Shown: one piece after another, positions 12,895 to 61,508 of the stretch
Numbering within the stretch: the stretch's first letter is position 1
How the letters are laid out: every line of letters begins with the position of its first letter
The notes under the pieces: model-generated
The model's database searches: none
Seen by the model: the letters and a program-made list of their open reading frames with translations, nothing else
Told to the model about the DNA's origin: nothing
Translations under genes and position numbers: made by a program
Assembly (NCBI GenBank): GCA_963757885.1
Contig: CAVWSS010000006.1
Coordinates: 305,500 to 369,499, forward strand
DNA length: 64,000 nt
Source: an uncultured Acidobacteriota bacterium
GTDB taxonomy: Bacteria > Acidobacteriota > Terriglobia > Acidiferrales > UBA7541
Direction: 5' to 3'

Positions 12895-12953
12895 GGTGCC
12901 CATGGGCCGCCTTTGCCCGTGGGGATTTTCAGCCAACCTGCGGGGTCCAAAAC
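12895..12953 (+). repeat. Hairpin repeat R2 (type I tail)
   Basis: ggtgcccatgggccgcctttgcccgtgggga-ttttcagccaacctgcggggtccaaaac. Confidence 0.8.
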
Positions 12954-12986
12954 TACGCAGACTTCTTGCTGTCGAATTTGCTTCTC

Positions 12987-13040
12987 GGGACGCCACCCCT
13001 CGGCTTTAGGGGTGGATTGCTACTACCGAAGACTTTGAGG
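12987..13040 (+). repeat. Hairpin repeat R3 (degenerate type II tail)
   Basis: gggacgccacccct-cggcttt-aggggtgga-ttgctactaccgaagactttgagg. The stem is ccacccct/aggggtgg. Confidence 0.6.
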
Positions 13041-13072
13041 AAACTCCACCGTGATTGGCGACGTCTCGACTT

Positions 13073-13810
13073 CTACTTTCTCTTCTCCAGCCACCCCTCC
13101 AACCCCCTCACATCACTCAACACCACCAACGCGCCCAGCTCTTCCAGCCTCTTCAACCTCAACTTCCTTGCCGCACTCCGGTATGGCAACAATCCCACAA
13201 ACGGCACCTTTCCCGCTCGCGCCGCCTTCGCGTCATCAACATTGTCTCCCAGATAAATCCCACGCGACGGTTCTCTCTTCCGCAACGCCACCAGCAATCC
13301 CTCCGGATCTGGCTTCCCTTTCTTCACATCCTCCGCGGTCACAATCCGGCCAAAAAATCCCCGCATCTTCAGCCCATCCAGCGTGTGATTCAGCTCTCGC
13401 CGCGTCCGCCCAGTAAACAAAGCCAATTCCGCACGCGTCCCGAGCCTCCGCAACGACGGCTTCGACAGCAGCCATTTCTCCCGCCGCACATTTCCCGGCG
13501 CCTCAATTCCCCAATAAATCTCCTCAAATCTCTTTTTCACTTCCTCGAACGGCCTCTTCACTCCCAGCTTGTTGACCCACACATGCGAAAGCTTCCAGTC
13601 GTCGTTAAATCCCGGCTTGTTCTTCCACGTGTGCACCTGCGCCATGGTCACGCGCTTCCCGGTAAAAAATTTCACCGTCTCGATCACCGTTCGCAAAAAC
13701 GACTCGCTCACGTCGACCAGCACGCCGTCCACATCAAAAATAATAATTTCTGGGAATGGGAACTTGCCGGTGGGAACTTTTCGAACTCGCTCCGTGCCTC
13801 TTTCACGCAC
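13073..13810 (-). CDS. HAD-superfamily hydrolase (phosphatase-like)
   Basis: 245 aa. Motif I is IIFDVDGVLVD. The C-terminal motif is GDNVDDAKAA. Confidence 0.8.
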   Translation of the reverse strand: MRERGTERVRKVPTGKFPFPEIIIFDVDGVLVDVSESFLRTVIETVKFFTGKRVTMAQVHTWKNKPGFNDDWKLSHVWVNKLGVKRPFEEVKKRFEEIYWGIEAPGNVRREKWLLSKPSLRRLGTRAELALFTGRTRRELNHTLDGLKMRGFFGRIVTAEDVKKGKPDPEGLLVALRKREPSRGIYLGDNVDDAKAARAGKVPFVGLLPYRSAARKLRLKRLEELGALVVLSDVRGLEGWLEKRK

Positions 13811-13833
13811 GGGCCTGACTTTTTTCTTCGCTG

Positions 13834-15234
13834 CTACGATTGGGACCCTTCTGAAGCTTCCTTCGCGCCCGTATGCTCGCCTGCATCCTCATCTGAGTGC
13901 TCTTCATCCCCGCTCGCCGCAGCCACTTCATTCTCCTCGCGAGCCTCTACCGCCTGTTCTTCGTGGGCTACTTCGTGCGCCTGATTCACTTCGCCGCTTG
14001 GACCCTCGTTACCCTTTTCCTTATTGGCCGGCTCGCCAAAATCCGGAGGCGCCTGCTCCTGCCCGCCACCTGCTGCCTGCGGCTCATGCTCTTCGCGCAT
14101 TTCCACTTTCGGCTGCTCTTCCTTTGTCTCGTATGCTTCCTTGGCCTGCTGTGTGGCTTCTGGAGCCTTTTCCGCCTTCGGCTGCGGCTTTTCTCGCTCT
14201 TCCTTTGCCGCGACTTCCTTCCCCGCCGCAGCCGCTTCCTTCGACGCGCCCTTCTCCACTCCTGCCGCATCCGCCGCACTCTCAGCCGTTTCCGCGGCCA
14301 CAGCTGCCGTAGCCGCGCGCAGCGTCTCCAAACGCAGCGCCATCAGCTCCCCAATCATCTCCACCAGCATCTTCGCCGCTTCGCCGTCCGCATCCTTCTC
14401 CGGATTGAACGCCGCAATATCAATCGCTGCCAGGTGCTTATCCTGGACAAAAACTTCCAGTGCCTCGCGCACTTCGTCCCGCGTCAACCCGCCCTGCCCT
14501 GGATAATCCGTCGCCGCAAAGTCCGCCATCACGTCCACGTCAAAATGCAAAATAAAGTCGTTCCGGCTGGCGTGAACTCGCTCCAAAGCCAGCTTGGCTG
14601 CTGCCGCTGCTCCTTTGCGCTTAACCTCCGTTGCCGGAAAATTCTTCAAGGGATACTTCTGCAGCAATTGCTCCTCCGGCGGATCGAATCGATCCGCTCC
14701 AAAAATCGCCAAATCCGGATCGCGCACCAGCGGAGGCTCGCCCCAGAATCGCACCAGCTCCGCCGCCCCGCGCCCCGTTAAATGCGCCACCGCCATTCCA
14801 TCCACGCATCCCGACGGAGTCGTCGCTGGCACATTCAAATCGGCGTCGCGATCCACCCAAATCATGCTCACATTGTGAAAATATCGCCGCACGCCCGCCA
14901 CCGTGGCCAGCGCGCTCGTACAATCGCCCGTCAGAACAATCGGAAGCGCACCCGTCTTCACCGCTGCTTCCACTCGCGGACGCAAACTCTCCAGAGATTT
15001 GACGATTGCCTTCAGGTTTCTTGCGCGTGGATTGTCCGGATCGGGTTCCGACAAATGCGTCGGGTCGTCCCCATGATCCGCCACTTCATATCCGGCCGAT
15101 TTCAGCCGGTCGACAATTCCCGCCGACCTCAGCGCCGCCGGTGCCCGCTCGTGCCCACGCGACATTGCCGCCGCGCTGGTGGGCACTCCCAACAGCACAA
15201 TCTTCTCCGGATGGCGCATGATCTTGACCGCCAT
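13834..15234 (-). CDS. Arginase/ureohydrolase-fold protein with divergent metal-ligand motifs and a ~150-aa E/A/K-rich C-terminal tail
   Basis: 466 aa. Segments LTGDCTSALAT, IWVDRDADLNVPATTPSGCVDG and LHFDVDVMADF align to the arginase motifs GGDHS, DAHxDxN..SGN.HG and DVDxLDP. Confidence 0.7.
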   Translation of the reverse strand: MAVKIMRHPEKIVLLGVPTSAAAMSRGHERAPAALRSAGIVDRLKSAGYEVADHGDDPTHLSEPDPDNPRARNLKAIVKSLESLRPRVEAAVKTGALPIVLTGDCTSALATVAGVRRYFHNVSMIWVDRDADLNVPATTPSGCVDGMAVAHLTGRGAAELVRFWGEPPLVRDPDLAIFGADRFDPPEEQLLQKYPLKNFPATEVKRKGAAAAAKLALERVHASRNDFILHFDVDVMADFAATDYPGQGGLTRDEVREALEVFVQDKHLAAIDIAAFNPEKDADGEAAKMLVEMIGELMALRLETLRAATAAVAAETAESAADAAGVEKGASKEAAAAGKEVAAKEEREKPQPKAEKAPEATQQAKEAYETKEEQPKVEMREEHEPQAAGGGQEQAPPDFGEPANKEKGNEGPSGEVNQAHEVAHEEQAVEAREENEVAAASGDEEHSDEDAGEHTGAKEASEGSQS

Positions 15235-15284
15235 GCTTGACTCCAGTTTAAGTCTTGCGTTTGGTTCGCGTTTGGTTCGTGTTG

Positions 15285-16265
15285 CTAGCGCGAGCCTTGG
15301 CGTGCGGCCAGTTCAGGCGGCAGCGTAAACCGCACATCCTCACGGATCAGGTCCAAGTCCCGCTGGTTTGTGAACCCGAAGGTCGCCAATCTCTGGCTCA
15401 CCTGCTCCACCAGCACTTCTGGCGCCGACGCCCCAGCCGTCAGCCCCAAGTTCTGAACCCCTTCGAGCCACTCGGATTCAATGTCATTTGCATCTTCGAT
15501 CAGGCGCGAGGCCACGCCCGCTCGTTTGGCCACTTCCACTAGCCGGTTTGAGTTCGAGCTGTTCGCCGAGCCCACCACCAGTATCAAATCCACTTCTCTG
15601 GTCAATGCTTCCACCGCTTCCTGCCGGTTCTGCGTCGCGTAACAAATATCGTCCGACGCCGGACCCACAATCGACGGGAACCGCTCGCGCAGCTTAGCCA
15701 CAATTTCCTGCGTGTCATACAGGGACAAAGTCGTTTGCGTCAGGAAAGCCAGCCGTTCCGGGTCGGCCACCCTCAATCCCTCGGCCTCTTCCACCGTGCC
15801 GACCACCACCGTCTGCAACGGCGCTTCTCCCGACGTACCCACAATCTCCTGGTGATCCTTATGACCGATCAAAATCAGCGTACGTCCCTCGCGCGCAAAC
15901 TTCAGCGCCTCCAGGTGCACCTTGGTCACTAGCGGGCACGTCGCATCGATCACCTGCAGCTTCCGATCCTTCGCCTCGTCGCGCACTCGGGGCGGCACTC
16001 CATGCGCGCTAAACACCAGCACCGCGCCCTCGGGCACCTCGCCAATCGACTCCACAAAGATCGCCCCGCGGCGCCTCAACTGGTCCACCACATAGCGGTT
16101 GTGCACAATCTCATGGTGTACATAAACCGGCCGCCCAAACGCCTCCAGCGCCAGTTCCACAATATCCACCGCGCGCACTACGCCCGCGCAAAATCCCCGC
16201 GGCCGCACCCGCACTAGCGTCTTAACCCCTTGCGAAGTAAGACCTTGTATTTGTGTCAGAGACAA
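15285..16265 (-). CDS. ispH: 4-hydroxy-3-methylbut-2-enyl diphosphate reductase
   Basis: 326 aa with RPRGFCAGVVRAVDIVE, HEIVHN and ATCPLVTKVH motifs typical of IspH/LytB. Confidence 0.9.
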   Translation of the reverse strand: MSLTQIQGLTSQGVKTLVRVRPRGFCAGVVRAVDIVELALEAFGRPVYVHHEIVHNRYVVDQLRRRGAIFVESIGEVPEGAVLVFSAHGVPPRVRDEAKDRKLQVIDATCPLVTKVHLEALKFAREGRTLILIGHKDHQEIVGTSGEAPLQTVVVGTVEEAEGLRVADPERLAFLTQTTLSLYDTQEIVAKLRERFPSIVGPASDDICYATQNRQEAVEALTREVDLILVVGSANSSNSNRLVEVAKRAGVASRLIEDANDIESEWLEGVQNLGLTAGASAPEVLVEQVSQRLATFGFTNQRDLDLIREDVRFTLPPELAARQGSR

Positions 16266-16378
16266 TTCTACCTACCTCAATCACAATATCTTAGCCGAAA
16301 CCCCTCCCCCTCGCCACCGCATTTAGACGCCCCCGCCCCACTCCCGTTTCGCCACTGCTTTTGACGTTTCCCGGTTTT

Positions 16379-16440
16379 GGGTGCCCCATGGGCCGCCTTT
16401 GCCCGTGGGGAATTACACCCAAGGTCCGGGGTCCAAAAAA
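16379..16440 (+). repeat. Hairpin repeat R4 (type I tail)
   Basis: gggtgccccatgggccgcctttgcccgtgggga-attacacccaaggtccggggtccaaaaaa. Confidence 0.85.
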
Positions 16441-16456
16441 TACTTCAAGCTTTTTC

Positions 16457-16519
16457 GGGTGCCCCACTTTCTGGTTTTAGAAAGTGGGAAGGAATGTAAT
16501 TCAAAGCCTTTGACTTGGC
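16457..16519 (+). repeat. Hairpin repeat R5 (type II tail, short form; reference copy)
   Basis: gggtgcccc-actttct-ggtttt-agaaagt-gggaaggaatgtaattcaaagcctttgacttgg. It has a perfect 10-bp stem. Confidence 0.85.
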
Positions 16520-16570
16520 CTTTTCCTTCCTCCTAATGCTACATTCCCAAAGTTTTCTAGGAGTAATTCC

Positions 16571-17353
16571 ATGCGCCTCCCCGGCAAAATCGCCATCATT
16601 ACCGGTGCCGGTCGCGGCATCGGCCGCGCCATCGCCAAAAAATTCGCCGCCGAAGGCGCCTCCGTCCTCCTCACTGCCCGCACTGACTCCGAACTCAAAG
16701 ACTCGCTTCACGAAATCCAATCCTCCGGCGGCAAAGCCATCACCCTCGTCGCCGACGTCTCCCAGCCCAAAGCCTGCGAACTCATTTTCCGCGCCGCCCG
16801 CGACACCTTCGGCCCCGTCGACATCCTCGTCAACAACGCCGGCATTTACGGCCACGTCCTTCCTCTCGAAGAGGTCACCGTCGAAGAATGGGACGAAGTT
16901 ATGGCCGTCAACCTCCGTGGCCCCTTCCTCCTCTCCAAACTCGTCCTCCCCGAAATGTACGAGCGCCATTCCGGCTCGATCGTCAACATCACTTCCATCG
17001 CCGGCAAAGCAGCCTTCGGACTCAACGGGCCCTACGCCACTTCCAAAGCCGGGCTCGCCGGCCTCACTCGCACTCTCGCCGGCGAAGCCGCCCGCAAAGG
17101 CGTTCGCGTCAACGCCATCAGCCCCGGCCCAGTCACTTCCACCAAAATGTCTCAGGATTTGGGCCGCGGCCTGGTCGAACGTTTCAAAACCACGCCCGAC
17201 GTACTCATGACCAAAATGCTCGATGGGGTGCTGCAAGGTAGGCCACAAACAGAAGAGGAAATTGCCGATGCTGCCCTGTTTCTCGCTTCTGACGAATCGT
17301 CCGCGATTACCGGGCAGACTCTGAACGTTGATGGCGGAATGGCTTTTTACTGA
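16571..17353 (+). CDS. Short-chain dehydrogenase/reductase (FabG-like)
   Basis: 260 aa with TGAGRGIGRAIA, NNAG and YATSKAG motifs. Confidence 0.9.
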   Translation: MRLPGKIAIITGAGRGIGRAIAKKFAAEGASVLLTARTDSELKDSLHEIQSSGGKAITLVADVSQPKACELIFRAARDTFGPVDILVNNAGIYGHVLPLEEVTVEEWDEVMAVNLRGPFLLSKLVLPEMYERHSGSIVNITSIAGKAAFGLNGPYATSKAGLAGLTRTLAGEAARKGVRVNAISPGPVTSTKMSQDLGRGLVERFKTTPDVLMTKMLDGVLQGRPQTEEEIADAALFLASDESSAITGQTLNVDGGMAFY

Positions 17354-17523
17354 ATCGTCTGCGAGCGCCAACCATCCGCGCCGGATCAATTCCGCCGATT
17401 TATTGAAGAACTTCTTCGCCAAAGGTCCCGCAGCTTCGATCCCGCGATCCGCGTAGCGCACCATTTCGCGCCATACTCGCACCGCCAGCACGCCGGCTTC
17501 GCGCAAATACGGCCGCGCTGCGA

Positions 17524-17955
17524 TCATTCCCGCGCTTCGCCGTCACTGCGATCCACCGCGCAAACGCGCCTAATTCCTTCGCTCCGCGCTCCGCCGCTCG
17601 CGCCGCAAACGGTCCCGCCCAGTTCCACGCCGCGCTTTCCCGCATCCACTGACGCGGTAATTCCCTCTTTGGTCAGCTCGCCAACTTTTTGCGCATACGG
17701 TTCGGCCAAATCCATCCCGCGCTCACCCGCCGACCCAAGCCCATAAAGCACCAGCGCCAACACGAAGAAAACCGCGAATCCCAAGCCAAAAAGCAGCTCC
17801 AGCACGATCAACTCACGCACAAAATAGAGCTGCAGAAATAAAATAATTACTACAGCCCACCAGATTGTTCGCTTGAGTTTCCGCCGCGCCGCTGGGTCTT
17901 TGGGAAGAAAATCTGAAAACCAATTGCTGTAACTATGCGCCATTTCCGCCTTCAA
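17524..17955 (-). CDS. Small membrane protein, unknown function; C-terminal third looks out of frame (see findings)
   Basis: 143 aa with two clear TM helices (IWWAVVIILFLQLYF, LLFGLGFAVFFVLALVLYGL). The last ~40 aa are Gly/Arg-rich and look like junk. Confidence 0.5.
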   Translation of the reverse strand: MKAEMAHSYSNWFSDFLPKDPAARRKLKRTIWWAVVIILFLQLYFVRELIVLELLFGLGFAVFFVLALVLYGLGSAGERGMDLAEPYAQKVGELTKEGITASVDAGKRGVELGGTVCGASGGARSEGIRRVCAVDRSDGEARE

Positions 17956-18228
17956 ATACTCAGGGACATTGGATGCAAATGCACGTCCAAAGACCTAGAA
18001 ATCGCGCGCACTGTGGAAAGCACTTAGCAAAGTCCTAGGACTATAAACACCTTTCTTGCCAGTACTTCCTTGCACAATTCCGGAAATCCCTTCGGCTCCA
18101 TACATTCCGTTACATCTCCTCCTACCACTCCCAAATATTAATCAACTCTGCCCTTCCTTCTTCACCTCCACGTAAGTGCACAATTACAAAGTCGCATTCG
18201 ATGTTGATGTTGAATTAGCCGTTTCTGT

Positions 18229-18273
18229 GGGTGTCTCACCTGCCGGTTCTGCGGGTGGGGATTTTGCGCGCGG
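18229..18273 (+). repeat. Hairpin repeat R6 (type I-like, diverged head)
   Basis: gggtgtctcacctgc-cggttct-gcgggtgggga-ttttgcgcgcgg. The stem pairs with two U.G wobbles. Confidence 0.6.
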
Positions 18274-18340
18274 ATAGCCTTATCTCTCCCATGCGCGTTT
18301 CCGCCTGGAAACTAGTTTTCCTGAATTTGATTTTGTTTCT

Positions 18341-18396
18341 GGGTGCCCCACCCTTCGGTTTTAAGGGTGGGTGGCAATCATTGATGACCTTGGCGA
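18341..18396 (+). repeat. Hairpin repeat R7 (degenerate type II tail)
   Basis: gggtgccccaccctt-cggtttt-aagggtgggt-ggcaatcattgatgaccttggcg. Confidence 0.7.
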
Positions 18397-18429
18397 CTCT
18401 CTTCTATCTTTCACTCAAAAAATGAAAAT

Positions 18430-20301
18430 CTAATAGCCCCCAAACGGATACCTATTCCTCGCCTCCACCGCATCCGCCACTTTTCTCCTCAACCCAATCA
18501 CATCCACCGCATCTTTCCTCGCAAATCTCTTCAACACCGCAAGCTGCGTCCTCAACCCATCGCCCTGATCCGTTGCCGCCAACGCAGTCCGCGCCTCTTT
18601 CTCAATTCGGTCGCTCGCGTCATAAATAAACACTTTCGCCGCCGCTATCATCGCGTGCGCATTCCCGCCACTGCCCGCCGCCGCGCCACCCCGCGCCGCC
18701 ACAATCTTCTGCGCCCTCCGCAGCACCGACTCCACCGCATAAACTTCCATCACGATATTCGCCAGCGCCCCCACCACTTCCTGCTCCTCCGCTAGCTTCT
18801 CCCGAAACTTCTGCATCGCCCCGCCTGCCGCCTGCAAAAAGATCTTCTTGCTCGACTCCAGCACCTTCTCCTCTTCCGCAAACTCTCCCGCGTCGCCATC
18901 CCCCACCGCGCCAAACGACCCGCCCATCGACGGCCCCACCATCACCTCATCCGCCAGCCCCTTCGCCGCCGCGAAAAACGGCAAGGCCCCGCTCATCGCT
19001 CGCTTAATCAGCATCTGCACAATCAACATCCGGTTAATCTCGTTTGTCCCTTCAAAAATTCTATTAATACGGCTGTCCCGATACGCCCGCGCCACCGGAT
19101 AATCCTCGTGAAATCCATACCCGCCATAAATCTGCACCGCTTCATCCACGCAGTAGTCCACCACTTCGCTGCAATACACCTTGCAGATCGAACTCTCGAT
19201 TGCATACTCCTCGAGGACCCGCATCGCCCTCTGCGCCTTCGTCTCGGCGGCCCCCGCAGCTCCAGCGGCCTCCGCGCCTTCCGTCGCATTCATCGCCTCA
19301 TCCACCGTTCCCGCCGTCCGGTAGACCATCGACTCAATCGCAAAAATCTGCACCGCCATCTCGCCCAGCTTTGAACGAATCATCCCAAATTCCGCAATCG
19401 GCTTCCCAAAGGCCACCCGCTCCTTCGCATATTTCGCTGAGGCTTCCAGCACTTTCTTCGCCCCGCCCAGGCAATACGCTCCCAGCGAAAATCGCCCCGC
19501 ATTCAACGTGTTGAAGGCGACAATGTGCCCGCGCCCAATCTCGTGCAGCAAATTTTCCTTGGGTATCGCGCAATTCTCGAAAAAGATCGGCACCGTCGAG
19601 CTGCCTTTGATCCCCATCTTTTTCTCTTCGGCGCCGGTCGAAAACCCCTTGGTCCCCCGCTCCACGATGAAGCACGAAAATTTCTCGCCATCCACTTTGG
19701 CGAACACCACAAACACATCCGCGAATCCGCCATTGGTAATCCACATCTTCTGCCCGTTCAGCACCCAACTCTTTCCATCACTCGATAGCACCGCGCGCGT
19801 CCGCGCCGCCAGCGCATCCGACCCCGCCTGCGGCTCCGACAGGCAGTAGCAAGAAATCAATTCGCCCGTGGCAATCTTGGGCAGATATTTTTTCTTCTGC
19901 TCCTCGGTCCCGAAATACACAATCGGTATCGTTCCAATCCCCGCATGGCCGCCATGCGTCACCGCAAACGACGCGTATGGCGCTAGCTTCTCCGCAATTA
20001 TCGTCGACGACACTTTATCCAGCCCCGCCCCTCCGTACTCTTCCGGAATCGCCCCGCCCAGCAGCCCCAATTCACCCGACTTTTTCAGCAGCTCCGGCAT
20101 CAACCCTTCTTTGTGCTGCTCCAACTCCCCCGCCAGGGGCAACACTTCCTTCATCACAAACTCTTCCGCCGTCTGCCCAATCAGCCGCTGATCGTCCTTA
20201 AAATCCTCCACACTAAAAATCTCCTCCGCCCTCAGCGGAGCCAACAAAAAACCCCCTCCTTTCACCCGCCCCTCTGAAACTGTGGAAGTGGCCATAGTCA
20301 A
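18430..20301 (-). CDS. Acyl-CoA dehydrogenase (long form with C-terminal helical extension)
   Basis: 623 aa with ACAD-type segments LSEPQAGSDA, MWITNGGFADVFVVFAK and RIFEGTNEI. Confidence 0.9.
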   Translation of the reverse strand: MTMATSTVSEGRVKGGGFLLAPLRAEEIFSVEDFKDDQRLIGQTAEEFVMKEVLPLAGELEQHKEGLMPELLKKSGELGLLGGAIPEEYGGAGLDKVSSTIIAEKLAPYASFAVTHGGHAGIGTIPIVYFGTEEQKKKYLPKIATGELISCYCLSEPQAGSDALAARTRAVLSSDGKSWVLNGQKMWITNGGFADVFVVFAKVDGEKFSCFIVERGTKGFSTGAEEKKMGIKGSSTVPIFFENCAIPKENLLHEIGRGHIVAFNTLNAGRFSLGAYCLGGAKKVLEASAKYAKERVAFGKPIAEFGMIRSKLGEMAVQIFAIESMVYRTAGTVDEAMNATEGAEAAGAAGAAETKAQRAMRVLEEYAIESSICKVYCSEVVDYCVDEAVQIYGGYGFHEDYPVARAYRDSRINRIFEGTNEINRMLIVQMLIKRAMSGALPFFAAAKGLADEVMVGPSMGGSFGAVGDGDAGEFAEEEKVLESSKKIFLQAAGGAMQKFREKLAEEQEVVGALANIVMEVYAVESVLRRAQKIVAARGGAAAGSGGNAHAMIAAAKVFIYDASDRIEKEARTALAATDQGDGLRTQLAVLKRFARKDAVDVIGLRRKVADAVEARNRYPFGGY

Positions 20302-20353: not shown

Positions 20354-20437
20354 GGGTGGCCCCATGAGCGCTTACGCGCACGGCGCGCCGGCAAATGCCA
20401 GAAAGTGAAAGGAATGAAAATAAACTCGAATTTCAGC
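20354..20437 (+). repeat. Hairpin repeat R8 (degenerate long type II)
   Basis: gggtggccccatgagcgcttacgcgcacggcgcgccggcaaatgccagaaagtgaaaggaatgaaaataaactcgaatttcagc. Confidence 0.55.
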
Positions 20438-20574: not shown

Positions 20575-21696
20575 ATGCACCTCAAATCCCTCACCCTCAC
20601 TCTTCCCCTTATCCTGCTCTCCTCTCTCCCTCTTCTCCCCCGCCAACAACAAACTCAAACTCCACCGCCCATCCCCGAACTCGACCGCCTCAAAATTTTC
20701 CTAGGAACCTTCAACGTCACCGAACACTACGAAAAAACCTCCCTCTTCCCTAAAGGCGGCGAATCCCACGGCCAATACAAATCCCACGCTGGTCCTGGCA
20801 ACTTCTCATACATCTCCGACTTCTGGACCTCCGGCGGTCCCGAAGGCTCTATCGCCGGCGAACAAATCATCACCTGGGACACCGACTCCGCCGGACTCAA
20901 GCGCTACACCTTTGGGTCCAATTTTCCCGGCGCCTTCATATCTCCCGGCGACTGGCAGGAAAACTCCCTCGTCTTCGGCGGCGATTTCGAATTCAACAAC
21001 CAAAAACTCCATTTCACCGACTCAACCACTCTCGGCTCTTCCCCTGACCTTTTTTCCATGAAGGAGATTTTCACCAGTCAGGAGAGCTCCACCACCATGC
21101 TCACCATGACCGCCAAAAAAGAATCCGCCTCCGGCACCGTCTCTACCCTTCCCGCCGCCGCTGAAGGCACGAAGCACGCCGACATTGCAGAACGTACCGG
21201 CCCCGAACCTCCCGCCCCGCCTACCGTCAAAGACTTGAACGCGGGCCTCCAGAAAATGTCTTTCCTCGTCGGCTCCTGGCACTATCAGCAGAAATTCCAA
21301 AAAGGCGGAATGACTCCCGACGGCGGCGGCGGCGAAGGCAACTACACCGCAGTCGTCGGCCCCGGCGGCAAATCCATCCTCACCGACTTCTCCGAAACGT
21401 CCGGCCCTCTCGCGGGCACTTCCGCTCACGAAGTCTTCACCTACGACGACGGCCAATCCCAATACACCGGCTACGCCTTCGTCTCCAGCGGACCCGGCTG
21501 CTTTACTCGCACCGGCATCTGGGAAAAAGACCACCTCGCCTTCAATCGTGAACTCACCATCCAGGGCCAGAAATTCCACATGCGCTTCGTCTACACTCTC
21601 CTCGCCCCCGACACTCTCACCATCGAAACCTACACCGGCATCAATGACCAACCCCTCGCCCTCTCCTTCTCCACCTCCGCTAAAAAACAGCAATAG
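20575..21696 (+). CDS. Secreted protein with two tandem lipocalin-like (DUF1579-like, from memory) repeats
   Basis: 373 aa with a signal peptide. There is an internal duplication: FLGTFNVTEHYEK...ITWDTDSAGLKRYTF versus FLVGSWHYQQKF...FTYDDGQSQYTGYAF. Confidence 0.7.
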   Translation: MHLKSLTLTLPLILLSSLPLLPRQQQTQTPPPIPELDRLKIFLGTFNVTEHYEKTSLFPKGGESHGQYKSHAGPGNFSYISDFWTSGGPEGSIAGEQIITWDTDSAGLKRYTFGSNFPGAFISPGDWQENSLVFGGDFEFNNQKLHFTDSTTLGSSPDLFSMKEIFTSQESSTTMLTMTAKKESASGTVSTLPAAAEGTKHADIAERTGPEPPAPPTVKDLNAGLQKMSFLVGSWHYQQKFQKGGMTPDGGGGEGNYTAVVGPGGKSILTDFSETSGPLAGTSAHEVFTYDDGQSQYTGYAFVSSGPGCFTRTGIWEKDHLAFNRELTIQGQKFHMRFVYTLLAPDTLTIETYTGINDQPLALSFSTSAKKQQ

Positions 21697-21708
21697 TTGT
21701 GGTTCTTT

Positions 21709-21786
21709 GGTGCCCAATAGGCCTCTTGCGCGCCGAATGGCGCGCTGATTAATAGGCCCCGTGGGGGTTTCACCCAAATTCCGGGA
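21709..21786 (+). repeat. Hairpin repeat R16 (type I tail, long form with nested GC palindrome)
   Basis: ggtgccc-aataggcc-tcttgcgcgccgaatggcgcgctgatt-aataggcc-ccgtggggg-tttcacccaaattccggga. Confidence 0.75.
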
Positions 21787-21822
21787 CATCGACTACATAG
21801 AATGTTTGGTAGTTGAATTTCT

Positions 21823-21885
21823 GGGTGCCCCACTTTCTGTTTTGAGAAAGTGGGATCGAATGAAATTTAAAGCCTTTGACTTAGC
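21823..21885 (+). repeat. Hairpin repeat R9 (type II tail, short form)
   Basis: gggtgccccactttct-gttttg-agaaagtggga-tcgaatgaaatttaaagcctttgacttagc. Confidence 0.85.
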
Positions 21886-21892: not shown

Positions 21893-23078
21893 CTAAATCC
21901 TCTCCAAAATCCCCGCCGCTCCCATCCCCCCTCCCACACACATCGTCACCAACCCATACCTCGCCCCTCTTCTCTCCATCTCCCTCAATATCGTCGCCGT
22001 CAACTTCGTTCCCGTGCATCCCAACGGATGCCCCAACGCAATCGCTCCCCCATTCACATTCACGCGCGCGGCATCCAGCCCAGCCACTTTGATCACCGCG
22101 AGCGCCTGCGCCGCAAACGCCTCATTCAACTCAATCACCTCAATATCTTCGAGCCTCAATCCTGCCTGCTTCAACGCCTTCGGTATCGCCAGTGCCGGCC
22201 CAATCCCCATCTCCTCCGGCTTGCATCCCGCCGTCGCGAACGCAATCAACCGCGCAGCGCCCTTCAATCCCCGCGCTCGCGCCGCATCCGCATTCATCAC
22301 CACCGTCGCCGCCGCTCCGTCGCTCGTCTGCGACGAATTTCCCGCCGTCACCACGCCGTGCGCATGAAACGCCGGCTTCAAGTTCCCGAGCGCCTCCATC
22401 GACGTATCCGCCCTCGGACCCTCGTCCGTATCAAACCTCAATTCCCGAGTTACTGGTTTCGATCCGTTCCCGCTCACAAACTCCGTAAACTTCACTTCCA
22501 CCGGCACAATCTCATCCTTAAATCTCCCCGCCGCAATCGCCGCCAGCGCCTTCTTATGACTGGCCAGCGAAAATTTATCCGCCTGCCTCGCGCGTAATTC
22601 CGTATTTCTTCGCCACGTTTTCCGCGGTCAGCCCCATCCCCAAATACGCATCCGGATAGTGATCCATCAGCCATGGATTCGGCGAGATTCGGTTCCCGCC
22701 CATCGGCACCAGGCTCATCGACTCGGTCCCGCCAGCGATAATCAATTCCGCGCGCCCAGCCATAATTCGCTCCGCCGCAATCGCAATCGCCTGCAGCCCC
22801 GACGAGCAAAATCGATTAATCGTCATCGCCGACGCTTCCACCGGCAGCCCCGCCCTTAGCGACGCGATCCGCGCCACATTCATTCCCTGCTCCGCTTCCG
22901 GCATGGCACATCCCAAAATCACATCGTCAACGTCCTTCGCCGCCACTCCCGGCGCGCGTTCCAGCGCCGCGCAAATCGCCGTCGCCGCCAAATCATCCGG
23001 CCTCGTCGACCTCAACGTCCCTCGCGGCGCTTTCCCCACCGCCGTCCTCACCGCACTCACAATCACCGCCTCCGCCAT
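21893..23078 (-). pseudogene. Acetyl-CoA C-acyltransferase (thiolase) interrupted by a +1 frameshift near 22586
   Basis: ORFs 22575..23078 (N-terminal half, [10 protein letters not shown] active-site Cys) and 21893..22507 (C-terminal half, GNSSQTSDGA, CVGGGMG) are contiguous halves. Total length is 1186 nt, which is 3n+1. The downstream frame reads [31 protein letters not shown] directly after ..GITRE. Confidence 0.85.
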
Positions 23079-23157: not shown

Positions 23158-23187
23158 ATGAACAAAATTTAAACTCTTTGACTTTGC
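23158..23187 (+). repeat. Repeat R10 (type II tail only, no hairpin head)
   Basis: atgaacaaaatttaaactctttgactttgc. Confidence 0.55.
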
Positions 23188-23269
23188 TCTTCTTCGTACT
23201 CTTACTATCAATTCCTTACCACTACTAAAACCGGGTTCCGATCACCCCAAGGTCAAAGGAGAACACCCC

Positions 23270-27346: not shown

Positions 27347-27502
27347 GATTTGCCTCGTCTTTTTTGAATTATGACTTCGACGCCCCGCCCTACACTTCGA
27401 TTCGCCGAGAATTGTAAATTTTCTCGTCAGATGATATTCCTTCCTCACGCTATTTCCATCTCCCGAAAAGGGTCGCCCAGTAAAAACCAAAGGAGAAATT
27501 CG

Positions 27503-28484: not shown

Positions 28485-28496
28485 CCTCGCCCCGGA

Positions 28497-30905
28497 CTAA
28501 TTCCTCAGCGCCTTCCCCGTCTTCAAAGTGTATCCAATCCTCTCCTGCGTCTTCCTCTCCCCGCACAAACTCACAAACGCCTCCCGCTCCAAATCCAGTG
28601 CATACTGCTCACTCACCAACTGCGGCGCGCTCAACTCGCCTCCCGCCAGCACATGCGCCAATTTCCTTGCCACCAACGCGTCATACTCCGAAATAAATTC
28701 GCCGCGCAGCATCATATGTATCGCCAGCTTCGCCGCCGCAATCAACTCTTCTCCTAGAACGCGCACCTCCGCGCCACCCCCCGCGTCACGCACCGGGGCC
28801 CTATACTCACTCCTCGCCAATCCCAGCACCGTCTCCTTCGCATCCGCCACCAATCGATCCCTATTCATGGCCACCGAGTCCGACCGGCGCATATACCCCA
28901 GCTCCACCGCCTCCGCCGCGCTCGTCGACACCTTCGCCATCGCAATCGTTTCAAACACCGGCTTGTACGCGTGAAACAAATCCAAGCTCTCCCCGCCTGA
29001 CGCATGCTCATTCGCGCGAATCATCATTTCCTTCGTTCCGCCGCCCGCCGGTATCAACCCCACTCCCGCCTCCACCAGCCCCATATACGTCTCCGCCGCC
29101 GCGTGAATCTTCGCGCCATGCAAACTAATCTCGCATCCGCCTCCCAGCGCCATTCCCTGCGGCGCAATCACCACCGGCTTCGGCGCATATTTGATCGCCA
29201 TATTCACGCGCTGAAATTCCCGCACCGCCGCGTGCAGATCGTCCCACTCCTGCTCCTGCGCGCTCACTAGGAGCAGCATCAAATTCGCGCCCACCGAAAA
29301 ATTGGCCGCCTGATTGGCGATGATCATGGCCTCAAAATCGGTGGCCAGCCGCTTCAGTCCCGCGTGAATCATCGACACAATGTCGCCGCCGATTGAATTC
29401 ATCTTGGAGTGAAACTCGCAGCAAACCACTCCGTCTCCCAAATCGATCAGGCTCGCGCCTACATTCGACTGCACCACTTTTGTTCGTTCTTGCAGCTCCT
29501 TCAAAATTAAAATTCCCGGCGGCCGCTCCTCGGGCACCATCTTTCCCGCGCTGACCACATCGAAATACTTCTTCTCGCCCTTCGCGCTCTCATAAAAGGA
29601 TTTCGCGCCGCCGTTCAGCAACTTCTCCACCAGCGACGGCCGCTGATAACCCGCCGCCTCCAGCCGCGCTGCCATCTTCTCCACTCCCACTGCATCCCAA
29701 ATCTCAAACGGACCCTGCTCCCACCCAAATCCCCACCGCATCGCCCGGTCCACATCCACCACGCGATCAGCAATTTCCGGCACGCGCATCGCCGCGTACC
29801 AACACGTCCTGCTCACGCTCGCCCACAAAAATCGCGACGCCTTATCCGCCTTCTCGCTCCCCTGCATCGCCGGCCCCATCAACGCCAGCAATCTCTTCCG
29901 CGTCCCTTCAATCCCCTTCGCCGCCTCAATTGACCCAAATCTCGCCTTCGTGCGCGGTCGGTATTCCAACGTCTTCCAATCCAGCGCCACAATTTCCTTC
30001 TCCCCGCCCGCGACGCGAACCTGCTGATAAAACCCTTTGCCGGCCTTCTCGCCCAGCCACCCGCGCCGGATCATCTCCTGCACAAACTTCGGCAACTCAT
30101 ACATCCCTCGCGACTCATCCTCCGTCGCGCGCTCATGAATGTTCCGCACCACATTCGCAATAATGTCGAGCCCCACAATATCCGCCGTGCGAAATGTCGC
30201 GCTCTTCGGCCATCCCGCAATCGGCCCAGTGCACGCGTCCACTTCCTCCACGGACATTTCCAGCTCCGCCATCAGCCGCATTGCGTTCATCAGCGAAAAA
30301 GTCCCAATGCGATTGGCAATAAAATTCGGCGTATCCTTCGCTCTCACCACACCTTTGCCCAGTCGCCGGTCGCAAAATTCTCCCAGCACTTGCCAACACA
30401 CTTTCGCGCGCGTCTGCGGCCCTGGTATCAACTCCACCAATTTCATGTACCGTGGCGGATTGAAAAAATGCGTCCCTGCAAAATGCTTCTGAAAGTCTTC
30501 CGATCTTCCCTCCGCAATCGAATGAATCGGCAGTCCGCTCGTATTTGTCGAAACGATCGTCCCCAGCCCGCCTAAACTTTTCCACGCGCTCCAGCAGCCG
30601 CGCTTGATCTCCAGCTTTTCCGCCACCGCCTCCACAATCCAATCGGCCTTCGCGCACCAATCCAGGTTGTCTTCAAAATTTCCGATCGTAATCAACCTCG
30701 CCACATCCGCGGCAAAAAATGCGGCCGGTTTCGCCTTCTTCGCGGCTTCCAATCCCGTCCGTGCCACCGCATTGCGATCCTTGCCTTCGCCCGGCGCCAC
30801 AATATCCAGCAAAAAACACGACACCCCCGCATTCGCCAGATGCGCCGCAATCCGCGCGCCCATCGTCCCCGCGCCTAGTACCGCTACCCGCTCAATCCCC
30901 GCCAT
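28497..30905 (-). CDS. 3-hydroxyacyl-CoA dehydrogenase / enoyl-CoA hydratase fusion (FadN/FadB-like)
   Basis: 802 aa. It has an N-terminal Rossmann fold (VAVLGAGTMGARIAAHLA) and a C-terminal crotonase region (ANFSVGANLMLLL). Confidence 0.9.
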   Translation of the reverse strand: MAGIERVAVLGAGTMGARIAAHLANAGVSCFLLDIVAPGEGKDRNAVARTGLEAAKKAKPAAFFAADVARLITIGNFEDNLDWCAKADWIVEAVAEKLEIKRGCWSAWKSLGGLGTIVSTNTSGLPIHSIAEGRSEDFQKHFAGTHFFNPPRYMKLVELIPGPQTRAKVCWQVLGEFCDRRLGKGVVRAKDTPNFIANRIGTFSLMNAMRLMAELEMSVEEVDACTGPIAGWPKSATFRTADIVGLDIIANVVRNIHERATEDESRGMYELPKFVQEMIRRGWLGEKAGKGFYQQVRVAGGEKEIVALDWKTLEYRPRTKARFGSIEAAKGIEGTRKRLLALMGPAMQGSEKADKASRFLWASVSRTCWYAAMRVPEIADRVVDVDRAMRWGFGWEQGPFEIWDAVGVEKMAARLEAAGYQRPSLVEKLLNGGAKSFYESAKGEKKYFDVVSAGKMVPEERPPGILILKELQERTKVVQSNVGASLIDLGDGVVCCEFHSKMNSIGGDIVSMIHAGLKRLATDFEAMIIANQAANFSVGANLMLLLVSAQEQEWDDLHAAVREFQRVNMAIKYAPKPVVIAPQGMALGGGCEISLHGAKIHAAAETYMGLVEAGVGLIPAGGGTKEMMIRANEHASGGESLDLFHAYKPVFETIAMAKVSTSAAEAVELGYMRRSDSVAMNRDRLVADAKETVLGLARSEYRAPVRDAGGGAEVRVLGEELIAAAKLAIHMMLRGEFISEYDALVARKLAHVLAGGELSAPQLVSEQYALDLEREAFVSLCGERKTQERIGYTLKTGKALRN

Positions 30906-31400
30906 TTATCTTTCTGCTACTCCTCTCCCTCGCGCGCCATCCAAATCCGTGCTCACCCCTCTCCGCCTCCCGCGTCAAATCCCACCGAAGAGCCAAACAG
31001 TTTGACGATGACGCTGCAACGCCCCAGTCACCGATTAAATTGCGTTTGGCTCTTCTAATTTTTTGAACTTTCCCCGCCTTTCTCCTCTTCTACCTCCACT
31101 TTCACTTTCTTCCCTCCGCCCTTCCCCGTTTTATTCAACCAATCCTCGAGCGACTTCCTCAATCTCTCCGGCTTCACACTCAATCCCGCCTCAATCCTGC
31201 CCTCTCCTACCGGCAACGTGTCATCAAACTCCGCCGCCCCCGTAAAATTTCTCATCGCAAAGGCATCCAGCCACTCCAGACGGACAATCCTTCTTTTCGC
31301 CTCCTCCCACCTCCACCCACACCCTCATCTTCCTCGCAAACATCCCGCGAGTATATCTCGCTCCCATCTTTGAGTTTGCTTTTGCCTTAGAAGTTTCTGC

Positions 31401-31516
31401 GGGTGCCACAAATGCGTTTTGGGCGTTCACAGAACGCACAGACGAACCGCAAGGTTCGTTCTCATATCAATGGACGCAGGTGGGAAGGCAGCACGTGAAA
31501 GCTTAAGTGTTTTTGC
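31401..31516 (+). repeat. Hairpin repeat R11 (long, diverged; nested GNRA hairpin)
   Basis: gggtgccacaaatgcg...acgaacc-gcaa-ggttcgt...caggtgggaaggcagcacgtgaaagcttaagtg. Confidence 0.5.
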
Positions 31517-31522
31517 TTTTCC

Positions 31523-31584
31523 GGGTGCCCCACTTCCTGGCGTCAGGAAGTGGAATCGAATGAAATTTAAAGCCTTCGCTTTGC
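31523..31584 (+). repeat. Hairpin repeat R12 (type II tail, short form)
   Basis: gggtgccccacttcctg-gcgt-caggaagtgga-atcgaatgaaatttaaagccttcgctttgc. The stem sequence differs from R5 and R9 by compensated changes. Confidence 0.85.
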
Positions 31585-31609
31585 TCGTCCTAACGGTCCG
31601 GCCTCAACT

Positions 31610-34114
31610 TTACTCCGCCCTTAGCACCATGACCGGATCCACCCTCATTGCCCTTCTCGCCGGCACAAAACACGCCGCTGCTCCCACCGCCACCAACACG
31701 ACCGCCCCCGCCGCCAGCGTTACCGGATCAAACGGCTTCACTCCAAATACCAAACTTTCCAGCGATCTGGTCAGCAACGCCGCCCCCACCACTCCAATTA
31801 CAATTCCCGCCCCAGTCAGCCACACTCCGCGGCCCACCACCAAACTCATCACGTCCTGCGGCTTTGCTCCCAGCGCAATTCGTATCCCAATTTCCCGCAT
31901 CCGCTGCGTCACGTAGTACGCCATCACCCCATAAATCCCAATCGACGCCAAAATCATCGCCGTCGCCGCGAAAAACGCCAGCAGCAGCATTGCAAATCTT
32001 CGCGCCGCCAACGAATCTATCACCACGCTATCGAGCGTCCTCACTCCAAACACCGGCAGCGTCGGATCCACCGCCTGCACTTCCCGCCGCAACGGCTCGG
32101 CCAAGACCTCTGCGCTCGATGAAGTCCGCACAAAAATCGTCAAAATCTTCACGCCCGACTGAAACACTGCCTGATAAATGTGCGGCGTGAATGGCTCGTC
32201 CAAACTCCCGCTCTTCATCTTTCCCACCACGCCCACAATCTTCAGTGACTTTCGCGCCTGCGGCTGAAACGATGCCGGCACATTCGCAAAGTGAAAGCTC
32301 TTCCCCACCGGATCCTCGCTCGGCCAATAACGCTGCGCCGTCGTCTCGTCGATCAACGCCACTCGCTCTGCCGTCTCGTTATCTCCGTCCTTAAAAAATC
32401 GACCCGCCACCAACGGCGTTCCCAGCAACTTAAAATAATCCGGCGTCACTGACGAAATTTCCGCCGTCGGTGCTTCTCCCGCCGAAGCTGGCGGCCTGTC
32501 GTCAATCACAATCGGCGTTAAATTCTTCGCTCGTGATAACGGCAGACTCCCCTGGGTCCCGATGGCCACTTCATTCACGCCCGGCAATGCCGACACTCGC
32601 CGGATAATTTCCCGCGATAACGCCGCCTGCTTCGGCGCATTCGGATACAAATTCTGCGTCGGATTGTTTGGCGTCGGCAGCCAGATCTGCGACACCACCA
32701 CATTGTCCGGCCTAAATCCCGGCGATACTGACAGCAAATTCCAAAAACTCCGCAGCAGCAGCCCCGCGCCCACCATCAGCACCAGTGACAGCGCCACTTC
32801 CGACACAATCAGCGCGCCCATCACTCTGCTCTGCTTCGTCCCCACTCCGCCGCGCCCGCCTTCCTTCAAGTTCTCCATCAACTTCGGATCCGAAAGCTGT
32901 AGCGCCGGCGCAATTCCAAATAGAATTCCAGTCAGTAACGCCAGCCCCATGGTGAACACCAGCACCGTCCCGCTCATGTGTATCTCCGCAATGCGCGGCA
33001 GCCGCTCCGGCATCAAGTGCAACAGCGCACCTTGCAGCCACGCATCCACCAATAGCCCCAGCACTCCGCCTGCGAGCGACAACACCATGCTCTCCGTCAG
33101 CGTCTGCCTGATCAGCCGCCCAGATCCAGCTCCGAGCGCGCGCCTCAGCGCAAATTCCCGGTGCCTTCCCGACGACCGCGCCAATAGCAGCGCCGCAATA
33201 TTCACGCACGCAATCAGCAGCACCAAGCCCACCGCGCTCAACAAAATCACCAGCATCGTTTCCGACTTGCCCACCATATCTTTCTTCAACGGCTCCATCC
33301 GCACCCGCCACCCCATCGCCGCCGGATAACTTCCCGGATACTGTGCCGTCAAATTCGACACAAACGCATTCAACTTCGCCTGGGCCTGCTCCACCGTCAT
33401 CCCGCGCTGCAATCGGCCAATCGCCGTTGGCAACATTCGAATGTCCCGGCTCGGCGGCACTGGAAACGGATCCGCTACATAGCCCGCGGCCACCCAGCAC
33501 TCCACGTCATGCTCCAGCGTCGGCCCCGGGTGCCGAAAGTCCGGCCCCATCACGCCCACAATCACGTACTCGTCGCCGTCAATTCGAAACTGCTTCCCAA
33601 TCGCGCTCGAATCCCCACCAAACATCCGCCGCCACAAACTGTCGCTGATCACCGCATTCTGCGTAAATCCCGGCGCGTAATCCTGCGAAGTGATAAACCG
33701 CCCCACTTCCGGTTTCACTCCCAGCATTTCAAAATAGTTGAAACTCACCGCCATCGCCTCGATGCGCTCCGGCTTTTCTCCGCCGGTCACATTCGCATCG
33801 ATCGGCCAAGCCGCCGAAATTTCCTGAAACACGCCCGAGCTTTTTTGCAGATCGTCGATCTCCGGCTGCGACATACCCACATTCTTCACCTGCTGCGCCG
33901 TCAGATCGTCCTGCACCGCGACGAGCTCCTGCGGAGCCGGAAACGGCAAAGGCCTGAGCAGCACTGCGTCGACCACCGAAAATAGCGCCGTGTTCGCGCC
34001 AATCCCCAGCGCCAGAGTCAGCAGCGCCACCACCGTAAATCCCCTGTTTTGCCGCAACGCCCGCAACCCATACCTCAGGTCCTGCCCTACCTCATCCATC
34101 CATTCCCAACTCAT
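31610..34114 (-). CDS. ADOP-family duplicated ABC-type permease (two MacB/FtsX-like halves)
   Basis: I start it at ATG 34114 (MSWEWMDEVGQDLRYGLRALRQNRGFTVVALLTLALGIGANTALFSVV, the typical ADOP N-terminus). 834 aa with two 4-TM FtsX-like halves. Confidence 0.85.
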   Translation of the reverse strand: MSWEWMDEVGQDLRYGLRALRQNRGFTVVALLTLALGIGANTALFSVVDAVLLRPLPFPAPQELVAVQDDLTAQQVKNVGMSQPEIDDLQKSSGVFQEISAAWPIDANVTGGEKPERIEAMAVSFNYFEMLGVKPEVGRFITSQDYAPGFTQNAVISDSLWRRMFGGDSSAIGKQFRIDGDEYVIVGVMGPDFRHPGPTLEHDVECWVAAGYVADPFPVPPSRDIRMLPTAIGRLQRGMTVEQAQAKLNAFVSNLTAQYPGSYPAAMGWRVRMEPLKKDMVGKSETMLVILLSAVGLVLLIACVNIAALLLARSSGRHREFALRRALGAGSGRLIRQTLTESMVLSLAGGVLGLLVDAWLQGALLHLMPERLPRIAEIHMSGTVLVFTMGLALLTGILFGIAPALQLSDPKLMENLKEGGRGGVGTKQSRVMGALIVSEVALSLVLMVGAGLLLRSFWNLLSVSPGFRPDNVVVSQIWLPTPNNPTQNLYPNAPKQAALSREIIRRVSALPGVNEVAIGTQGSLPLSRAKNLTPIVIDDRPPASAGEAPTAEISSVTPDYFKLLGTPLVAGRFFKDGDNETAERVALIDETTAQRYWPSEDPVGKSFHFANVPASFQPQARKSLKIVGVVGKMKSGSLDEPFTPHIYQAVFQSGVKILTIFVRTSSSAEVLAEPLRREVQAVDPTLPVFGVRTLDSVVIDSLAARRFAMLLLAFFAATAMILASIGIYGVMAYYVTQRMREIGIRIALGAKPQDVMSLVVGRGVWLTGAGIVIGVVGAALLTRSLESLVFGVKPFDPVTLAAGAVVLVAVGAAACFVPARRAMRVDPVMVLRAE

Positions 34115-34135
34115 CGGGCTTCTCCTTCCGTCTCT

Positions 34136-34190
34136 GGGTGCCCCATGCGCCGGTTTTGCGCGTGGGGACTTACATCCAAATTCCGGGTCC
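34136..34190 (+). repeat. Hairpin repeat R13 (type I tail)
   Basis: gggtgccccatgcgc-cggtttt-gcgcgtgggga-cttacatccaaattccgggtcc. Confidence 0.8.

Positions 34191-61507: not shown

Positions 61508-61508
<1 letters not shown>

Follow-up and report, generated by a model that had tools for sequence, protein, structure and literature searches.

Why should a family of short hairpins lie on one strand only of a bacterial chromosome segment, and change stem sequence from copy to copy while keeping its base pairs? This question is raised by a 64 kb stretch of chromosomal acidobacterial DNA (the window), whose closest named IspH relatives are metagenome-assembled genomes of Candidatus Acidiferrales and Acidoferrum. 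Approximately 15 copies of one repeat (named R1 to R15) are found between 8.8 and 41.9 kb of the window (~35 kb); all are intergenic, all lie on the + strand and none lies on the - strand. A sequence-only reading of this locus had proposed that selection acts on a folded + sense nucleic acid, either RNA or single-stranded DNA (ssDNA), and had placed the phenomenon at 12895-34190, a span that is too narrow since copies that it named itself, at 8848, 38460 and 41778, fall outside. Selection on a folded + sense molecule is supported here by covariation and strand asymmetry in a larger data set. As to the choice that had been left open, ssDNA is the best reading, and no evidence of a + sense RNA was found. 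We consider it highly probable that the repeats are repetitive extragenic palindromic (REP) elements that are read as ssDNA hairpins, on the strand bearing the conserved 5' head, by a REP-associated tyrosine transposase (RAYT, also TnpA-REP). A + sense RNA is most likely not the cause of the covarying stems and one-strand wobbles.

The copies share a common anatomy. A T-rich leader is followed by the head, GGGTG, and by a hairpin whose conserved lower stem, the foot, reads CCCCA(C/T)...GTGGG(G); above the foot are a variable upper stem and a T-rich loop, and the sequence 3' of the hairpin is referred to as the tail. The upper stem is free in sequence and length yet paired. Stems measure 9-18 bp, and loops are most commonly 7 nt long; on the element strand, T accounts for 55% and A for 6% of the loop bases. 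Three tail types are distinguished in the window. Type A reads GGGAtcGAATGAAATTTAAAGCCTTTGACTT; type B reads GGGGAaTTACAcCCAA and folds back to pair with the head; the third belongs to a long variant containing a nested hairpin, GCGCGCC..GGCGCGC. When a covariance model was run over both strands of the window with filters off, full-length matches were obtained on the + strand only, and the - strand matches were merely the palindromic parts of + strand copies.

Stem covariation and strand asymmetry

A wider copy set was gathered by scanning soil and peat metagenomes with a pattern that fixed the leader, the head and five foot pairs only, leaving the hairpin interior unconstrained. At least 120 metagenome stretches were obtained, all with the same repeat architecture; the repeat family is common in soil (and peat) Acidobacteriota. 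Together with the window and its relatives, and with the extra copies found on the metagenome stretches, the set comprises 188 copies that were kept because they have a hairpin, 174 of them distinct, and large-scale pair counts were made with a foot-anchored, ungapped pairing script. The covariance model "R1" was too subfamily-specific, giving 37 matches at E values up to 0.001 in 100 sources. A type A pattern scan of a genome-contig collection, seemingly without the source species or close relatives, returned one plausible extra copy (L001) and one chance match (L002).

The stems described in the sequence-only reading are present: cccactttct/agaaagtggg in R5 (16463-16488), R9 (21829-21854) and R15 (41784-41809), ccacttcctg/caggaagtgg in R12 (31530-31553), cccaccctt/aagggtggg in R7 (18347-18371) and ccacccct/aggggtgg in R3 (12993-13015). 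The claim that sequence varies between copies while pairing is retained is upheld in the 174 distinct copies, 75% of which have all five variable stem positions paired; when arms are combined across different copies, this is true of only 8.6%. Similarly, the helix is extended by at least four uninterrupted pairs in 74% of 116 distinct metagenome interiors versus 3.3% of shuffled ones. In alignment A6 (13 sequences, ungapped), 97.7% of stem cells are paired versus 81.2% after shuffling, the covariation score is 0.51 versus 0.19, and shifting the partner by 1-3 columns leaves a pairing of 25-51%. Alignment A7 (37 sequences, model-based) gives 98.6% versus 79.2% paired and a covariation score of 0.55 versus 0.18. 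For each alignment, 0 of 500 shuffles reach the observed covariation score, and covarying pairs are still supported with more copies added. The upper stems are also diverse: 86 copies display 25 different 4-mers over their first four free positions.

The non-Watson-Crick pairs fall unequally on the two strands, as the same reading had anticipated. Stem position 5 (the second C after GGGTG being position 1) is T.G in 101 of the 174 copies, C-G in 61, G-C in 5, T-A in 2 and another mismatch in five, and C.A in none. Among copies in which this position was not fixed by the search pattern, T.G occurs in 27, C-G in 24 and C.A again in none, while positions 6-9 hold 22 G.T or T.G pairs versus 6 A.C or C.A. 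With RNA parameters, 144 of the 174 copies fold more stably on the element strand than on the complement; with DNA parameters, 128 do. Replication-linked C-to-T pressure is expected to place T.G on the G-rich strand. The observed asymmetry runs against this bias. Both covariation and strand asymmetry are confirmed to be far above chance.

Within the window, R13 (ccccatgcgc/gcgcgtgggg) and R4 and R2 (ccccatgggc/gcccgtgggg) each have one T.G, and the T.G site assigned to R1 (cTtccg/cggGag, the copy at 8848) is right, as are the others except for R6, which has three T.G pairs and not two. The C.A mismatch of R14 (38460) is likewise present, and the statement that it is the only one needs a caveat: R8 and R11 are degenerate with other mismatches, and in type A copies the outermost foot C stands opposite A (GCCCCAC...GTGGGA), if that position is counted.

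The family is not uniform. A subfamily on six metagenome stretches (L018, L029, L039, L060, L064 and L093) has the foot CCCCAGG..CCTGGG, CCCCATG..CATGGG or CCCCGG..CCGGGG, and its stem position 5 covaries among the Watson-Crick pairs C-G, T-A and G-C. The sole constant part across the repeat family is GGGTGCCCC. Four near-identical copies in direct orientation within 1.3 kb (L040, 551-1795) suggest local amplification.

The RAYT gene flanked by the repeat

On one metagenome stretch (L064), copies occur in both orientations around a 0.6 kb segment with an open reading frame (ORF) encoding the HUH motif PEHVHLL and a WSSF..Y motif; the copies on either side of this gene are recognized by the covariance model, to which window copies had contributed. 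A tblastn search with the ORF places its family in 16 of the 120 metagenome stretches listed, none of which had been chosen on any criterion but the repeat pattern. Nine of 10 full-length genes show the REPtron layout, lying between inverted copies whose heads point outward: the upstream copy has its head at -48 to -171 and the same direction as the gene, while the downstream copy is inverted with its head at +537 to +567. The flanked proteins match Pfam Y1_Tnp and score 107-110 bits against NCBIfam NF047646 (REP-associated tyrosine transposase, cut-off 80), compared with 31-44 bits against NF033573 (IS200 transposase), which is under the cut-off of 55. The best solved structure for the flanked protein is that of Escherichia coli TnpA-REP (4ER8, E = 2e-13). 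Homologues are common in Terriglobia, and one is named REP-associated tyrosine transposase by NCBI.

Three further observations concern these genes. The L064 gene (477-1018) is frameshifted into two overlapping ORFs and has nine heads within 900 nt. On four stretches (L019, L087, L122 and L067) the T-rich tail of the upstream copy (..CTTTGACTT..) stops 10-15 nt before the RAYT start codon, and the tail of the dispersed copies may derive from the sequence 5' of the RAYT gene. Three stretches, L088 (2734-3111), L051 (5197-5571) and L073 (13518-13898), carry another Y1/HUH family that is only distantly related (25-28% identity to the RAYT) and has no GGGTGCCCC heads within 900 nt.

The repeat itself has several properties of REP elements. 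Like REPs, which are palindromes of ~20-40 nt, it can form a stem-loop, with 97-99% of stem cells paired among the copies kept for their hairpin, and its many copies are dispersed and mostly intergenic (on the metagenome loci, 17 of 164 placed copies lie inside a gene called by an approximate gene caller). Canonical REPs are defined by a GT[AG]G motif, and some classes have atypical heads (PMC6006769). TnpA-REP binds and cuts the REP strand as an ssDNA hairpin, leaving the complementary iREP unprocessed (PMC8266576); sequence counts in the 5' motif and the lower stem, and the part played by the upper stem is purely structural (PMC8266576, PMC3333891, PMC6006769).

These studies suggest how the present repeat would be recognized. 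The cognate enzyme would be a RAYT (TnpA-REP), a small HUH/Y1 single-strand DNA endonuclease/transposase whose gene lies between two inverted copies. By analogy with the TnpA-REP enzymes of E. coli, Stenotrophomonas and Marinomonas, it would bind the head-bearing strand after folding as ssDNA, reading the 5' head and lower stem by sequence and the upper stem by shape alone. Because the upper stem would be read only by shape, upper stems would be free to covary. Because the enzyme would read folded ssDNA of the head-bearing strand, T.G would be tolerated and C.A rare on that strand, and the strand of a copy would be unrelated to the direction of neighboring genes. The presence of a RAYT flanked by the same repeat, together with the published strand specificity of TnpA-REP, argues that the folded + sense molecule is ssDNA. 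Strand-specific binding and cleavage of the window copies by such an enzyme would have indirect support in the excess of T.G over C.A, the T-rich loops and the more stable fold of the head-bearing strand. We infer that the source genome has a RAYT of the same family, which would act on the window copies as ssDNA.

A number of points weigh against assignment to the REP elements. No 5' GT[AG]G is found 0-2 nt from the hairpin foot; at the right place is GGGTG (GGTG), a variant of the REP-defining motif, for which a literature search gave no bacterial report among the papers listed. The copies are single or head-to-tail and do not form the inverted doublets of bacterial interspersed mosaic elements (BIMEs) or REP doublets forming hairpins (REPINs); inverted arrangements were seen only around RAYT genes. 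The upper stems are far more diverse than those of recently copied families, and other forces may help to maintain pairing. The head-bearing strand is the C-rich strand, by the usual skew rule the leading-strand template and not the lagging-strand template favored by IS608-type enzymes. Finally, the suggestion in the sequence-only reading that RAYT-like nucleases be considered succeeded in related metagenome DNA, where a RAYT is flanked by inverted copies, and failed in the 64 kb window, from which tblastn shows a RAYT gene to be absent; the link to the source genome is drawn from the shared repeat architecture.

The flanked protein has its nearest structural relative in the E. coli REPtron, with REP/BIME elements and TnpA-REP (4ER8), in which intergenic palindromes likewise carry a conserved single-stranded 5' motif at the foot and a single small HUH/Y1 gene lies between inverted copies. 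Strand-specific ssDNA recognition of the kind described there would account for the one-strand wobbles (PMC8266576). The E. coli REPs differ in having the head GTAG, a conserved AA/GC bulge where the present family has a recurring T.G at stem position 5, and inverted pairs rather than single or head-to-tail copies that are locally on one strand and have much more variable upper stems. The group 3 REPs/REPINs of Pseudomonas and Stenotrophomonas are also short, mostly perfect palindromes, in which the 5' motif sets strand discrimination and the lower stem and loop hold sequence information (PMC8266576). They differ in forming inverted doublets with another head motif, and no GC-skew orientation bias of these elements was reported in the literature searched.

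Within the same phylum, Di Nocera et al. 2013 (PMC3733652) describe TIRtrons, in which Y1 (TIRYT) genes of Terriglobus, Koribacter, Acidobacterium and Granulicella have inverted-repeat flanks; in K. versatilis, one TIRtron repeat is described there as a dispersed family. The TIRYT proteins and the present RAYT share a phylum and probably a protein group, with homologues of the latter found across Terriglobia. The flanks, however, are described in that paper as terminal inverted repeats (TIRs) unrelated to REPs, with the motif GGGGWSAS, which the reverse complement of the head region here (GGGGCACC) does not fit, comparing by motif description only. The "double foot" REPs of TnpA-Y1 subclass 2.4 (Quentin et al. 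2018, PMC6006769) resemble the type B copies R4, R13 and R2, and differ in that their motif is GT[AG]G, whereas the present copies have GGGTG and a 3' foot that is a 5-nt bulge away from the hairpin. The subterminal hairpins of IS608/ISDra2 (IS200/IS605 family) are similar in being read on one strand as ssDNA by a Y1/HUH enzyme, in having a guide-like motif 5' of the hairpin foot and in an orientation tied to replication. In contrast to the present repeats, these elements enclose a transposase between direct ends and follow a lagging-strand-template rule; no transposase is enclosed in that way here, the enzyme is of the RAYT class, and the foldable strand is on the C-rich strand.

Alternative explanations

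The alternative that survives best is template switching in quasi-palindromes during replication, which would copy one arm onto the other and produce pairing without any selection on the fold. Such quasi-palindrome correction is an established mutational process. It would suit upper stems that are hugely diverse yet mostly perfect, a diversity in excess of expectation for a recently copied family. The conserved head, lower stem and T-rich loop are nevertheless left unexplained, as are the RAYT association and the position 5 wobbles, which stand uncorrected in 101 of 174 copies with C.A absent. As the source of the whole pattern template switching is unlikely, and it could contribute alongside the REP/RAYT explanation.

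Less probable is the possibility that each copy specifies a folded + sense RNA, which might be a small RNA, an antisense regulator or a cis-regulatory leader, and that selection on its folding is recorded in the covariation. A + strand T.G would then be U.G, the + fold is the more stable one with RNA parameters (144/174), and R5, R8, R10 and R13 lie upstream of + strand genes. No credible Rfam match falls on the copies, however, at E values up to 10; in the window the tRNA alone reached its gathering score, and a RybB match across R4 remained at 20.1 bits (gathering 40, E = 7.5). The gaps that hold copies lie between unrelated genes, in two convergent, four divergent and five tandem-antisense cases, and there is no consistent upstream promoter (one promoter-like site in 19 kb versus 6.4 expected). 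Comparison between species also argues against an RNA function. In species at 85-92% nucleotide identity, the repeat is present in the syntenic region in the same orientation, and in the orthologous gaps (the ispH-SDR gap, SDR being a short-chain dehydrogenase/reductase, and the gap past the acyl-CoA dehydrogenase gene) the flanks are kept while the copies are different, partial or decayed, a fast turnover. Relatives at 89% IspH identity (L005-L010) have no GGGTGCCCCA copies in the syntenic region. Judged from these comparisons, the repeats are not conserved regulators, and the RAYT association accounts for the same features as an RNA would.

Slightly less probable again is that the hairpins are intrinsic terminators or mRNA-stabilizing 3' end hairpins, with pairing under selection at the level of transcription. 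A T-rich tail such as ATTTTGACTTT does follow many of the metagenome copies, sense-oriented metagenome copies lie a median of 34 nt past the upstream gene, the 8848 copy and R9 lie just past + strand genes, and a secondary role of this kind is reported for REPs (PMC3733652). In the window copies, on the other hand, no run of T follows the stem, and a terminator scan picks up none of them; 11 of 15 are not downstream of an own-strand gene, and no copy is found in ~13 gaps between co-directional + genes, including the ATP synthase cluster. The conserved 5' GGGTG head and the RAYT partner are not terminator features.

The weakest alternative, that the copies are non-autonomous IS200/IS605 derivatives (palindrome-associated transposable elements) moved by a TnpA-IS200, is brought to mind by head-to-tail hairpin pairs 78-122 nt apart that resemble IS608-type left and right ends and by an orientation linked to strand composition, and is very improbable given that neither direct end hairpins with an IS200-class TnpA nor a tnpB-like gene beside the flanked gene were seen, that the flanked gene is above the REP-associated cut-off and under the IS200 cut-off, that the copies around it are inverted and not direct, and that their orientation is opposite to lagging-strand-template insertion (PMC3333891).

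Other identities were rejected. The TTGACT of the type A tail was considered as a promoter, and no consistent -10 box was found at the right spacing on either strand. A tRNA-like element or minihelix on the minus strand (...GTGGGGCACCCA) was rejected by eye, with ARAGORN finding only a tRNA-Leu at 3486-3571. Integron attC sites, CRISPR and sigma-54 sites do not fit the motifs or the gene context of large housekeeping genes.

Copies in the window and their orientation

The first copy in the window, R1 ("R1/Rx", 8848-8911, +), is a long variant with its head GGGTG at 8848, a stem CCCACTTCCG/CGGGAGTGGG with one T.G, a loop that holds the nested GCGCGCC..GGCGCGC hairpin and a type A tail to ~8938. 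It is located 27 nt past the stop of the + gene 7991-8821, in a convergent gap. R2 and R3 form a head-to-tail pair with a spacing of 95 nt. R2 (type B, 12894-12924, +) is slightly decayed, with the head AGGTG, one foot C lost and the stem CCCATGGGC/GCCCGTGGG with a T.G, and R3 (12987-13015, +), with the stem CCACCCCT/AGGGGTGG (12993-13015), has a decayed head, GGGAC. Between the divergent ispH (-) and SDR (+) genes is R4 (type B, 16369-16431, +), with the head at 16379, the inner hairpin CCCCATGGGC/GCCCGTGGGG (16384-16410, with T.G) and an outer helix TTGGGTG/CACCCAA that constitutes its "double foot". R5 (type A, 16457-16516, +) has its head at 16457, its hairpin at 16463-16488 and the tail GGGAAGGAATGTAATTCAAAGCCTTTGACTT.

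R6 (18229-18260, +) has the head GGGTG and the stem TCTCACCTGC/GCGGGTGGGG with its three T.G pairs. It is followed by R7 (18341-18398, +), with the head at 18341, the hairpin CCCACCCTT/AAGGGTGGG (18347-18371) and a variant tail, TGGCAATCATTGATGACCTTGG; the R7 orthologue on one related stretch (L011) is decayed. R8 (20354-20420, +), a degenerate long variant with the head GGGTGG and a broken stem, separates two divergent genes, that for acyl-CoA dehydrogenase (-) and 20575-21696 (+). The convergent gap between the latter and a thiolase gene (-) holds R9 (type A, 21823-21883, +; hairpin 21829-21854). The thiolase gene (21893-23078, -) is itself split into 22575-23078 (Thiolase_N) and 21893-22507 (end of Thiolase_N and Thiolase_C), which could reflect a frameshift, a pseudogene or an assembly error. 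R10 (23160-23192, +) is a fragment without head or hairpin that retains a type A tail only (GAACAAAATTTAAACTCTTTGACTTTGC); it is in the divergent gap ahead of an alpha/beta hydrolase gene, and a similar 5'-truncated copy is present in the ispH gap of a related stretch (L004).

R11 and R12 are again a head-to-tail pair, with a spacing of 122 nt. R11 (31401-31484, +), a decayed long variant, has the head GGGTGCCACA and two nested hairpins followed by AATGGACGCAGGTGGG, and R12 (type A, 31523-31583, +) has the hairpin CCACTTCCTG/CAGGAAGTGG (31530-31553). R13 (type B, 34136-34178, +) has the hairpin CCCCATGCGC/GCGCGTGGGG with one T.G; compared with R4, one pair is swapped from G-C to C-G, and its outer helix GGGTG/CATCC has a G.T. 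R14 (38460-38545, +), a long variant with a type A tail and the stem CCCACCTTCG/CGAAAGTGGG with one C.A mismatch, occupies an antisense position within a gene cluster for 2-oxoacid dehydrogenase (E1 beta to E2). Finally, R15 (type A, 41778-41838, +; hairpin 41784-41809) has the genes for lipoamide dehydrogenase and lipoate ligase (both -) as its neighbors.

Head-to-tail pairs with a spacing of 78-122 nt are frequent (R2-R3, R4-R5, R6-R7 and R11-R12), usually with a type B or long copy first and a type A copy second. The type B copies (12894-12944, 16369-16431 and 34136-34178) have the complement of the head, CACCC or CATCC, 3' of the hairpin, and their outer helix TTGGGTG/CACCCAA leaves a 5-nt bulge. 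The long variants (8848-8911, 38460-38516, 20354-20420 and 31401-31484, as well as copies in L004 and L011-L013) have a nested second hairpin, GCGCGCC..GGCGCGC or similar, and a conserved AATGGAcg within the main-hairpin loop.

The sequence-only reading had found a + sense fold unexpected, many of the neighboring genes being transcribed from the minus strand. This surprise is unfounded, as copy orientation is independent of gene direction and several of the neighbors are + strand genes. The window gene map was derived from a strand-aware codon model, which is approximate when applied to the metagenome loci. In this map, ORFs on the G-rich strand at 16445-17527, 21022-21789, 8087-8986 and 34323-36408 (all -) are shadows of the real + genes 16571-17353 (the SDR gene), 20575-21696, 7991-8821 and 34666-36429. 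The region looked more uniformly minus-stranded than it is because of these shadow ORFs. The + strand is C-rich throughout the window (GC skew -0.03 to -0.37), and the skew stays negative even where the genes are on the + strand, with ATP synthase alpha, gamma and beta (57456-61508) on the C-rich strand.

A similar relation is seen in the metagenome loci. With the copies masked, it is the C-rich strand that bears the heads in 42 of 54 loci (p = 5e-5), and where |GC skew| exceeds 0.05 the C-rich strand is favored by 30 loci to 1. Gene direction, from the approximate caller, is no predictor: genes run with the copies at 14-16 loci, against them at 22-24 and both ways at 12-13. Under the usual GC-skew rule, leading-strand synthesis is templated by the C-rich strand. 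Since the head-bearing strand is C-rich, this rule would place the foldable strand on the leading-strand template. The IS608/ISDra2 model predicts the opposite placement (PMC3333891, PMC6006769). We tentatively suggest, as a possibility that is more doubtful than the REP assignment itself, that these are single copies whose RAYT-read strand is almost always C-rich, and that REP orientation would be a chromosome-wide polar signal if a switch at origin and terminus holds. If this is true, either REP spread or retention would be coupled to replication with a polarity opposite to that of IS608/ISDra2, or the host would keep a stable hairpin off the lagging-strand template.

The REP/RAYT system is of a known kind; what sets this family apart from the textbook case is the GGGTG head, the single or head-to-tail copies, the diverse upper stems and the GC-skew orientation. 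A striking pattern of covarying hairpins and one-strand wobbles would thereby be explained without a new RNA, as the footprint of an ssDNA enzyme. On this reading, the Acidobacteriota of soil and peat, from a phylum in which such repeats have barely been described, gain an abundant REP family whose head, GGGTG, is unusual. The link between orientation and skew, if confirmed, bears on how REPs spread and on the marking of replication polarity. With its conserved head and lower stem, free upper stem and recurrent T.G, the family would provide a natural experiment on what a RAYT needs.

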